From an uncultured bacterium (lineage in GTDB: Bacteria > Chlamydiota > Chlamydiia > Chlamydiales > FEN-1388), in the NCBI GenBank assembly GCA_964487845.1, contig CAZASK010000007.1, positions 5,999 to 69,998 of the forward strand: a DNA stretch of 64,000 nt, written 5' to 3'. Both the position numbers and the translations under genes were made by a program. The notes under the pieces are model-generated. The model was given only the letters and a program-made list of their open reading frames with translations, made no database searches and had not been told where the DNA came from. Below are positions 13,701-17,773 of this stretch, in pieces; the first letter of the stretch is position 1, and the number at the start of each line of letters is the position of its first letter.

Positions 13701-16700
13701 TCGTTGTCATACACACCTAAAAGCTGTGTGTCTTGAAATACACATTGCCCATTCGTGATACTGAAAGTACTTATGGTTCTCCTCTGCGAATCAGATATTG
13801 TATACACATCTGGTGCTTTTTTCTGAATCTTGGCGCTGGAGAATTGACTATTCATAGTAGCAAGAATAGGAGGAAGCTGAGTAGTGACTACCTGCTCTAT
13901 TTTTTCTAAATCTTCTTTTCGACTTTTTATCTCGCTGGATAATTCAATTAATTGAGAACTTGTATTCTGTGCATCTCTGTAACGAATTGAAGATGCCGTA
14001 TTCTGAGGAGTAGGATGACTCTGATGCATGATGTGAGCTATCGTAGCATAGGCAAATAGCTGTTCTTCAATCTCATTTTGAGGAATATGACTACATATAT
14101 TGCCTGAGCACGCTAAAATCGTCTCTAGTAGAATAGGACGAGAAGCGGTAAATTTTTCTTTCATCCCTACCTGAAAGACACGCAGTAACTCATTATCCGA
14201 TATCACGCACATTTGTGAAGGGATTTTAGAAGAGCGATGTGAATGATCTAAATAATTTTGTATATTTTTTGCAATCCAGGTCAGATTTGCCGCCGTCACT
14301 ATGTCTTCTACTTGAAGAGCATTTTCAATTTTTTGCTGAAAAAAGTCTCTTATGCACCCTACAAGGCGAGGGATGTCATTCGTTTTGTTAAAAGCGCTGG
14401 CAAGCACCTCTGGTCTAAATAGAAGACTATGAAAAAGCTGACACCACTTGTTATCAAAAAGAAGATCGTGCCGCTCTGAAAAAAATATGAGCAGCGAATC
14501 AACGAGCATATCAGGAGTTGCGACAAGCGAACATAGATTTTGTACAATGTCTGGCGATAGAGTATGAACCCATAAATCACCGTCTCGAATGAGTGTATCT
14601 ACATGAAAAGGAGCTAATGCTTCCTTATCATTCAACACACTATTCATTTTCGTGTGCAGAAAGTTATGAAATTGCAGAAAATCCCGTGGTAAAGCAGATG
14701 CATATTGATTGTGTGATGTTTTTTCCCGTTCAAACCCACTCTGTTTTTGCAACAAAAATGTGCATTTTCCAGGGATCTTTTTCCCATCGAAGTTGCACAA
14801 ACTACGTGGGAAGTTTTCTTGCTTAATGGGGTTATGTTGCTTTTCTGGATAATTAAAAAGATGCCTCGTGCGCACTCCCCAATCAAGCATCGTAGTAAAA
14901 TCTTCTGGCACACAGACGTCATTATTTTGAGTACCAAGCTGACTCTTCCACTTCGTATCATCCAAGAAAAACATAGCTCTATAGATATTCCCTGCCGTAG
15001 TTTGACTTAATTCGGGTTGAACATATTGCTTGGGCCAATGATGTGGTCTTTTTGCAACGATATGAGGGGCTTGAGATAACGTATTCTGCAACTCGTTTAT
15101 CTTTCGCTCTATGCTTCTAATCTCATCTCTGATATCAGATTTGTCGCCTGATTTTTTACACTTTCCCCACTCTTGTTCTTTCTCAGTAAGTTCCTGTTTT
15201 TTTTTGTCGAGCTGTTGTTGAGTCTCATTCTTTAATTTCTCTACTTCACGTTTTTGCAGCTCTCTATCACGCGTGATCGACTCTTGTACCTGTTTCTGTA
15301 AAGGCTCATTTCTTGTATCCTTATACCAGTCCATAACAGATGTCGCTATGTGCTCATTCAGCGTATAGGAATTCTCCTCATGAAAGTCGACAGAAGCAAA
15401 AATGTTAGTATATTTATTATTAGACGATAGCCACAGATCGTCATGTAGCTTAACCCAGAATGGATCTGTGCACTGTATATCTTTCGCAAAATATATTGAA
15501 TTCGGACAGACAATATTGCTCCCTCTTCCTTGCAAAGGCAGCTTGGGTAAACATTCAGTTTTGGTACGCTGACAATAGGCTTGTTCTAAATGGCGTACGA
15601 GGCACAGCATCATGATCTGATGTGAAGGAGAGCTCTTGTCAAGATTTGTATACAGACAATTTGCAATTTGTGAAATTGCTTCAAAACTCATTTTTGCATC
15701 TTCAAAGTTCATTTTTTCAATATTTTTAAATGAACCTATTTTTTTGAATAATTGGTCAAGGATGTCGGGAAGAACCTTTTTTACATCTTCTCTACCGACG
15801 ATTTTTTGAATACCCTGCAGTATGAGCTCATATTTTTTTTGAAAGTTTTGATCTTGTGGAGTAGGAAGGTTGTGTATGTCCTGTACTATCTTGACGATGT
15901 CTTCTTGATGAAATTTTGCGATAATGGAGTCGCCATCCGTTGTTTTCATATCAGAAATATCTTTGAAGTCAGAACTTTTTGTGATACTGAGCGAAACGAG
16001 TTGAGATACATTGCCCACACTTCTCAAGTTATTATGAGATTCGAACTGCAATACTTTCGCATCCATCTGTTTGAGCATATTTTGATAGAGCACGATTTTC
16101 TTTTTTGCTTCGACTATTTTTTCAGAAGGGAGTATGGCAGAAAGGTTTTCAAGACTTTTCGCAAATTGTTCTATAGAGCGCTTGATGATCGAATAGGACT
16201 CACGAGTCTCTTTATGTGCCTCTACAGTTGTAATATTTTTTGAAGCAATCTTCTGTAAATCTGGAATATAGCGCTCGAGTAAGAACAGCTTAAATTCCAT
16301 TTTGAATAATTTATAATCGCGTTGCGTCATATTGTTCGCAAGACAGGCTAACAGCGATTTGTAGGTACATGTTCCAGATCGCTGCGGAGATACTAGTCGC
16401 TGTACATTCGGATCTATTTTTTCCGATTCCCCTCCAAGCATTGGAAGCAGCTGACCTACCAACACATCGGCAGGGCCTCCCAGTCCCTTTTCCCCCTCTT
16501 TTGACCAAGACGTCAACATCTGTAAAGATGCAAAAAACGATTTTTTAAACATCCGCTTTTCATCAATCTCGCATACAGCAATACAACCATCTACTTTTTT
16601 ACGATATCCTTTTTGAAATGACGAATGATATTGACTTCCAGCACCTTCGTTATAAATTCTAAAGCTGTATTTTCCATTTTTATTCTTTTCAATCTCATAC

Positions 16701-17773: not shown

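Follow-up and report, generated by a model that had tools for sequence, protein, structure and literature searches.

The 64-kb window analysed here, a stretch of the chlamydial contig CAZASK010000007.1, encodes a giant protein of 3,325 amino acids (aa) whose N-terminal head carries a papain-like catalytic signature in the residue order of the clan CE cysteine peptidases. The four residues of the signature (His355, Asn375, Gln464, and Cys469) are near-invariant among 150 diverse relatives and fall on the standard catalytic elements of a high-confidence structural model, whose strong fold matches are the Legionella effectors AnkH and LegA15. We regard it as very likely that the head is a genuine CE-topology catalytic Cys/His/Asn domain. 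It is also probable, with somewhat less confidence, that the domain is a papain-like thiol hydrolase of the AnkH/LegA15 type, for which the likeliest activity would be that of an (iso)peptidase on host conjugates of the ubiquitin (Ub) or ubiquitin-like (Ubl) type. The narrower proposal, that the head is specifically a Ub/Ubl-type isopeptidase, is possible but tentative.

The signature was first proposed, from sequence alone, in the initial annotation of this stretch, and the three lines of evidence just named uphold it. Translation of window positions 16319-16756 on the minus strand returns both peptides on which the proposal was based. The codons that it assigned to the His and the Cys are exact, reading CAT and TGT in the giant open reading frame (ORF; coordinates in Table 1), and a Gln does stand five residues ahead of the Cys and is conserved. 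For the third residue, the annotation had left a choice between Asn and Glu. Our alignment settles this in favour of Asn375, which is near-invariant, whereas the adjacent Glu376 occupies a variable position (T in 59, R in 29, and E in 19 family members).

Conservation was read from an exhaustive HMMER search with aa 240-560 as the query, the best 150 matches of which, each representing a cluster at 50% identity, form the family alignment. When the 321 columns of this alignment are ranked by entropy, His355 comes first, Asn375 third, Cys469 seventh, and Gln464 ninth, and the other top-ranked columns are occupied by glycines (G351, G377, G379, G467, and G283) and by Trp352. The four residues fall within the family motifs GGW-x-G-H-A-[IMV]-x-Y-E, R-[VIL]-[YF]-N-x-G-x-G-x-x-[YF]-H, and [ST]-P-Q-R-S-G-T-C-[TSA]-[WY]-[KR]-S-L-x-A. 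In each of four family members (P0031, P0032, P0051, and P0053), at least two of the residues are missing, and such joint loss is expected for residues that act together.

The bare His/Asn/Gln/Cys pattern is not beyond chance. A loose regular expression (H-x14-25-[NDE]-x40-130-Q-x4-5-C) matches 16 times in the giant ORF, compared with 8.2 +/- 3.9 times in shuffled copies, 98% of which carry at least one match. The signature is raised above chance because its four residues are conserved across the family. Two further conserved elements of the head are left unexplained by a simple triad model. One is a second histidine, His383 (window 16625-16627, minus strand), which is kept in 121 of 147 relatives and lies eight residues past Asn375. 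The other is the N-terminal motif F-G-D-x-F...S-x-L-E-G, within which position 282 is Ala in the window protein, as against Glu in 121 of 141 relatives.

The fold of the head was predicted with AlphaFold2 for aa 255-530, using a 34-sequence alignment (A1). The model has a predicted local distance difference test score (pLDDT) of 90.3 and a predicted template-modelling score (pTM) of 0.87; in the blocks that contain the four residues, the pLDDT is 88-97. Model strand 101-109 starts at His355, Asn375 stands just past the antiparallel strand 115-120, and model helix 215-226 begins with Cys469. As modelled, the active-site layout is that of the papain fold in its clan CE permutation. The earlier guess that the His and the third residue sit on neighbouring strands agrees with this prediction, in which His355 opens one strand and Asn375 closes the next.

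The predicted head was also compared with the PDB by Foldseek. Six matches reach E<=1e-3, and all of them are the Legionella Dot/Icm effectors LegA15/AnkD and AnkH (LegA3). The strong matches (LegA15/AnkD 7XQL and 7KJ6, AnkH 6MCA, and AnkD 7EW8) have a probability of 1.00, query TM-scores (TMq) of 0.52-0.58, and E-values from 2e-5 to 3e-4 (2e-5 for 7xql_B, 1.5e-4 for 6mca, and 1.6e-4 for 7ew8). Behind them, genuine clan CE peptidases (SseL, SENP1/3/5, and I7L of poxviruses) are overrepresented among the weak matches, at E 0.4-2.

The published sites of these two effectors can be compared with that of the head by residue order, spacing, and motif. In the cysteine-protease-like domain of AnkH, His243, Asp258, and Cys324 overlie the catalytic triad of XopD, a clan CE enzyme, the conserved motifs are rGHa, D/NRg, and GNCSWANV, and the triad is required for function in infection (PMC6712400). 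For LegA15, the triad H268-N290-C361 was proposed, with a conserved Q356 five residues ahead of the Cys (PMC9757750). The head shares with both proteins the order of a His, an Asn or Asp ~15-22 residues further on, and then the Cys. It shares with LegA15 the Q-x4-C spacing, common to Gln464/Cys469 and Q356/C361. As in AnkH, the model places the His at the start of a strand, the Asn/Asp at the end of the next strand, and the Cys at the N-terminus of a helix, and the family motifs G-H-A, N-[TR]-G, and G-T-C-[ST]-[WY] parallel the three AnkH motifs. The sources are also alike, being intracellular bacteria of amoebae.

In contrast, homology to the Legionella proteins is not detectable in sequence, since neither phmmer nor hmmsearch matched 6MCA, 7KJ6, 7XQL, or 7EW8 at E<=10, and the structural alignments have 11-14% identity. 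The His and the Cys are 114 residues apart here, compared with 81-93 in the Legionella domains. The architectures differ as well: the Legionella proteins are ~450 aa long and carry ankyrin repeats at the N-terminus as well as a cap domain, whereas the window protein has 3,325 aa, a DUF3638 ATPase (described below), and no Ank Pfam match anywhere along its length. The nearest solved relatives thus support the fold and the site, not yet the chemistry, and whether the Legionella domains act as proteases or GTPases is itself under dispute.

The wider clan CE (Ulp1/SENP and XopD of family C48, SseL/ElaD of C79, I7L of C57, adenain of C5, and ChlaDUB1) has the same order of His, Asp/Asn/Glu, Gln, and Cys, with the His on a strand, the acid or amide on the next strand, and the Cys at a helix N-terminus after the oxyanion Gln. 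The head differs from these enzymes in its extra helices and in that the CE Pfam models do not match it even at E=10. Its Gln is also five residues ahead of the Cys, compared with six in Ulp1, where the catalytic pair is Gln574/Cys580. A local resemblance to the His and Cys boxes of ubiquitin-specific proteases (USPs), which the initial annotation had pointed out, dissolves into the generic His-hairpin and Cys-helix pattern of the papain fold. Identity with the USP/UCH family (C19) is ruled out: His355 precedes Cys469, no UCH/USP Pfam model matches, and no USP is among the best 50 listed fold matches.

The analysis itself shows the residues, how well they are conserved, the fold, the domain architecture, and the size of the family; we infer the catalytic roles, the hydrolase chemistry, the substrate class, and any coupling to the ATPase, as follows. 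Cys469, at the N-terminus of its helix, would be the nucleophile, and His355, at the start of its strand, would serve as the general base, oriented by Asn375, which closes the neighbouring antiparallel strand. Gln464 and the backbone NH of Cys469 would form the oxyanion hole. The invariant glycines G351, G377, G379, and G467, together with Trp352, may line a narrow substrate channel. The head would then cleave eukaryotic (host) protein conjugates of the Ub/Ubl type, while the ATPase and the repeat regions resembling tetratricopeptide repeats (TPRs) would engage or remodel the substrate.

The family to which the head belongs is large. The exhaustive search found 610 relatives at E<=1e-3, of which 151 also pass E<=1e-10, and almost every full-length relative is a giant protein, 2,900-4,000 aa long, that carries the domain close to its N-terminus. 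A public protein collection holds a protein identical to that of the window (P0002). Word-index protein searching is nearly blind to the family, returning one match with aa 1-700 and one with a 34-sequence profile and passing over the entry of the window protein itself. Its match P0001, a partial protein from a metagenome-assembled genome (MAG) labelled Verrucomicrobia and the sole close relative, is 37% identical overall, is far more conserved over aa 340-500, and keeps all four residues. A pattern search for close relatives placed the head domain at eight genome loci, and the genome matches come from Waddliaceae, Parachlamydiaceae, 'Verrucomicrobia SZAS' MAGs, and one contig of 41% GC binned as Myxococcaceae. 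Two scans of viral contigs found no relatives.

Two of these genome loci have peculiarities of their own. The contig binned as Myxococcaceae (L009, 7839-17189, plus strand) encodes a distant homologue of 3,116 aa that retains GGW-x-G-H, N-E-G, and Q-N-A-G-T-C. At its start, this protein has a lipoprotein-like signal peptide (MKLLLLSIFLFSIAC), a feature that the window protein does not share. A GC content of 41% is atypically low for Myxococcaceae, so the contig may have been binned incorrectly. The head domain is encoded at two loci of one Waddliaceae MAG (L003, 5947-11742, and L007). At L003, the gene is broken into two ORFs (1,394 and 505 aa); a frameshift, a pseudogene, or an assembly error could account for this.

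Along the giant protein, the coverage profile of the family shows three modules that are kept even by distant members, namely the head (aa ~270-520), a middle region (aa ~1490-1700), and a C-terminal module (aa ~2050-2860). The middle region is conserved in ~60 of the 150 family members. Within the C-terminal module, Pfam DUF3638 (PF12340) at aa 2166-2366 is the only above-threshold Pfam match in the giant protein (E 5e-22; 78.7 bits against a cutoff of 31), and it scores 93-100 bits in distant family members. DUF3645 (PF12359) reaches E 0.0019, below its cutoff, in the relative P0137 and is not detected by Pfam in the window protein.

Besides its Walker A and Walker B motifs, the C-terminal module has invariant Gly, Lys, Gln, and Arg positions and a conserved Q/R motif. 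Its AlphaFold2 model has a pLDDT of 85.5, and Foldseek matches the model best to SecA (E 1e-8 to 1e-6), followed by DinG/XPD, UvrB, Snf2, and MDA5 (to 1e-3). A PDB sequence search with the module gave no match to any solved structure. On the predicted structure, the module is a motor ATPase of two RecA lobes with large inserts. It resembles the SecA and superfamily 2 (SF2) motors in its two RecA-like lobes, its GAGKT Walker A motif, and its DEAD-type Walker B motif, and differs from them in its TM-scores (0.25-0.36), its identity (~10%), and its large family-specific inserts.

Distant family members carry the protease-like head together with the DUF3638 ATPase. Moreover, when the head was compared with predicted viral structures, Foldseek matched N-terminal segments of Klosneuvirinae proteins (E 6e-7 to 7e-6) that are named 'DUF3638 domain-containing' or 'ubiquitinyl hydrolase 1'. 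Therefore, judging by predicted fold, giant viruses of amoebae carry the same head on DUF3638 proteins. Proteins with DUF3638 are widely distributed among eukaryotes, with their function undefined (PMC12615304), and the domain is listed among those of expanded gene families in microsporidia (PMC5423893). The window protein is like the DUF3638/DUF3645 giants of eukaryotes and giant viruses in its size of ~3,000 aa; unlike the described, eukaryotic family, the copy here lies in a bacterial chromosome. The Pfam model of DUF6606, the N-terminal domain of fungal DUF3638 proteins, did not match any of the 34 head-domain family members searched, and no paper in the literature searched mentions DUF6606.

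The remainder of the giant protein can be described briefly. It is predicted to be soluble, having neither a signal peptide nor any stretch hydrophobic enough to span a membrane, and a reading as a membrane protein was rejected on the latter ground. An acidic alternating stretch (DFEGELELEQETEHEIEVEVEQEREVEV; window 8450-8533, minus strand) lies near the C-terminus, and an E-x-E-x-E run occurs at this position in the family consensus as well. Inside the giant ORF, an antisense ORF of 163 aa with a TTG start (window 15752-16243, plus strand) is probably spurious.

Table 1. Features of the giant gene, in window coordinates
Feature	Position	Strand	Basis or conservation
Giant ORF, 3,325 aa	7796..17773	-	ORF list
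Cysteine-protease-like domain, AnkH/LegA15 type, clan CE residue order, aa ~262-520 (predicted)	16214..16990	-	family conservation peak, AlphaFold2, Foldseek
N-terminal domain motif F-G-D-x-F...S-x-L-E-G, aa 270-283	16925..16966	-	D273 125/138, G283 134/140
His355 codon (CAT), proposed general base, motif GGW-x-G-H-A	16709..16711	-	145/147, lowest-entropy column
Asn375 codon, proposed His-orienting residue, motif [YF]-N-x-G-x-G	16649..16651	-	144/148
Glu376 codon	16646..16648	-	variable position
Gln464 codon, proposed oxyanion-hole residue, Q-x4-C	16382..16384	-	135/146
Cys469 codon (TGT), proposed nucleophile, motif P-Q-R-S-G-T-C-[TSA]-[WY]-[KR]-S-L	16367..16369	-	141/147
Middle region, aa ~1490-1700, weakly TPR-like	12674..13306	-	coverage profile; TPR_19 E 0.068, sub-threshold
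P-loop ATPase module, aa ~2050-2860, two RecA-like lobes and large inserts (predicted)	9194..11626	-	DUF3638, AlphaFold2, Foldseek, family conservation
Walker A G-A-G-K-T-S, aa 2207-2212	11138..11155	-	G, G, K invariant
Walker B D-E-A-D, aa 2341-2344	10742..10753	-	sequence and family alignment

Several observations weigh against reading the head as a peptidase of host conjugates. The head has no Pfam match at E<=10, whether to Peptidase_C48, UCH/USP, YopJ, or any other model, and no peptidase family model matches any of 34 family members at E<=1. NCBIfam gave no match for the head domain, and neither phmmer nor the 34-sequence profile matched it to PDB sequences. None of the Foldseek matches to genuine CE peptidases (E 0.4-2) is significant taken singly. 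The triad placement was read at the secondary-structure level of the model, not by coordinate superposition. As for the Legionella relatives, protease activity of AnkH was not detected in vitro (PMC6712400), and a 2022 study describes LegA15 as an atypical GTPase that needs C361, Q356, and K367 and in which H268A has little effect (PMC9757750). The viral name 'ubiquitinyl hydrolase 1' is an automatic annotation, not evidence, and experimental backing for it was not found in the literature searched. Finally, we infer, rather than observe, secretion of the protein into the host.

Four alternatives to a host-directed hydrolase were weighed. One is that the head is an autoprocessing protease, which would cut the giant protein in cis or in trans and so free fragments after delivery. 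A protease-like head with an intact, conserved H/N/Q/C site on a very large multi-domain protein would be in keeping with such a function, and giant bacterial toxins, among them the large clostridial and MARTX toxins, commonly carry autoprocessing cysteine protease domains. However, the toxin domains belong to clan CD (C80) and have a different fold, and no conserved candidate cleavage motif was identified in the family. In addition, giant-virus homologues share the head, and for them delivery-linked processing is less obviously needed. We consider this alternative unlikely.

It also seems improbable to us that the head is an atypical nucleotide hydrolase like that reported for LegA15, that is, a GTP/NTP switch in which the Cys and the Gln would position water to attack the gamma-phosphate. 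In its favour, LegA15 bound to GNP (7xql) is the top fold match in the PDB, the C361 and Q356 needed by its GTPase correspond to Cys469 and Gln464 in order and spacing, and 98 of the 150 relatives have a basic K/R at C+3, to be compared with LegA15 K367 at C+6. Yet His355 and Asn375 outrank Cys469 in conservation, whereas H268A and N290A have little or mild effect in LegA15, and position 376, which corresponds to LegA15 R291, varies across the family and is R in 29 of 150. Furthermore, the protein already has a dedicated Walker A/B NTPase, and the GTPase claim comes from one study and conflicts with an earlier structural interpretation.

A YopJ-like acetyltransferase, or another acyltransferase using the same Cys/His site, would fit the clan CE residue order, and clan CE does include acetyltransferases and dual deubiquitinases/acetylases such as ChlaDUB1 (PMC10942603). 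We nevertheless find this very unlikely, as no YopJ/HopZ/PopP2 structure occurs among the best 50 listed fold matches and a match to the YopJ Pfam model was not found. Moreover, the third residue is Asn here, whereas in YopJ it is typically Glu. Least probable of all is a non-catalytic site, be it a chance motif or a pseudo-enzyme scaffold, or a permuted USP: the bare pattern is indeed within what chance allows, the residues are missing from some family members, and protease activity is unproven for the solved structures closest to the head, but few positions are better conserved across the 150 relatives than these four, which sit on the canonical catalytic elements of the model, and the residue order and the searches given above argue against a USP.

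The surroundings of the giant gene are those of an ordinary bacterial chromosome, with pepF, groEL, miaB, ligA, glgB, an hflX-like gene, gyrB-gyrA, yidC, a Pkn-type kinase gene, and an ankyrin-repeat protein gene in the window. The giant gene itself stands alone, divergent from mlaE-mlaF-mlaD upstream and convergent with a 260-aa ORF and groEL downstream. A role in anti-phage defence was rejected, PADLOC having found 0 families at E<=0.1 and the gene being monocistronic among housekeeping genes. Among named relatives, the GyrA protein comes closest to those of a Chlamydiales MAG (75%) and of Candidatus Protochlamydia species (71-73%). These neighbours, together with the genome matches of the head domain, therefore indicate an environmental, protist-associated chlamydia (Parachlamydia-like Chlamydiota).

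Other features of the window deserve brief mention. A 573-aa ankyrin-repeat protein (41852-43573, minus strand; Ank_2 E 1.4e-11) has eukaryote-like repeats of a kind typical of effectors of amoeba-associated bacteria. The product of 58280-60139 (minus strand) joins a Ser/Thr kinase domain to a C-terminal region that matches the NCBIfam models EgtB, GldK, and SenA; we take this region to have an FGE-sulfatase-type fold, and the protein presumably resembles chlamydial Pkn1-type kinases. At 28651-30864 (minus strand), the longest ORF of the NAD-dependent DNA ligase begins ~120 residues ahead of the adenylation domain and overlaps glgB by ~60 nt, so the extra residues may be an N-terminal extension or the result of an over-extended TTG start. 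ARAGORN found no tRNA or tmRNA genes in the window.

The fold, the type of site, and the existence of DUF3638 giants as uncharacterised proteins are already known. What appears to be new is a large, sequence-coherent family of head domains that has no model in the Pfam and NCBIfam copies searched, and a head with an intact H-N-Q-C site that is fused to a SecA/SF2-like motor and is present in both Chlamydiota and giant viruses. On sequence and model evidence, a large branch of the DUF3638 family, amounting to 610 clusters at 50% identity, has an unmodelled N-terminal domain in which the four polar residues of highest conservation make up a papain-type site of clan CE topology. This links the family structurally to AnkH and LegA15, and its larger, more diverse alignment could help to settle the protease-versus-GTPase dispute.

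A bolder proposal, which we think doubtful, is that the giants combining the cysteine-protease-like domain with DUF3638 are an unrecognised class of ATP-driven protein-processing machines in eukaryotes, giant viruses, and amoeba-associated bacteria. In such machines, the SecA/SF2-like motor would engage or thread a substrate, and the CE-topology (iso)peptidase head would cleave the substrate or its Ubl modifier; in chlamydiae, the copies would be effectors that derive from the host or are aimed at it. If true, this would provide the first function for DUF3638 and a new peptidase family. For chlamydial biology, our analysis nominates the 10-kb gene as a candidate for a host-directed enzyme, and a giant protein like those of eukaryotes and giant viruses, in an environmental chlamydia of this kind, may plausibly act on the host.

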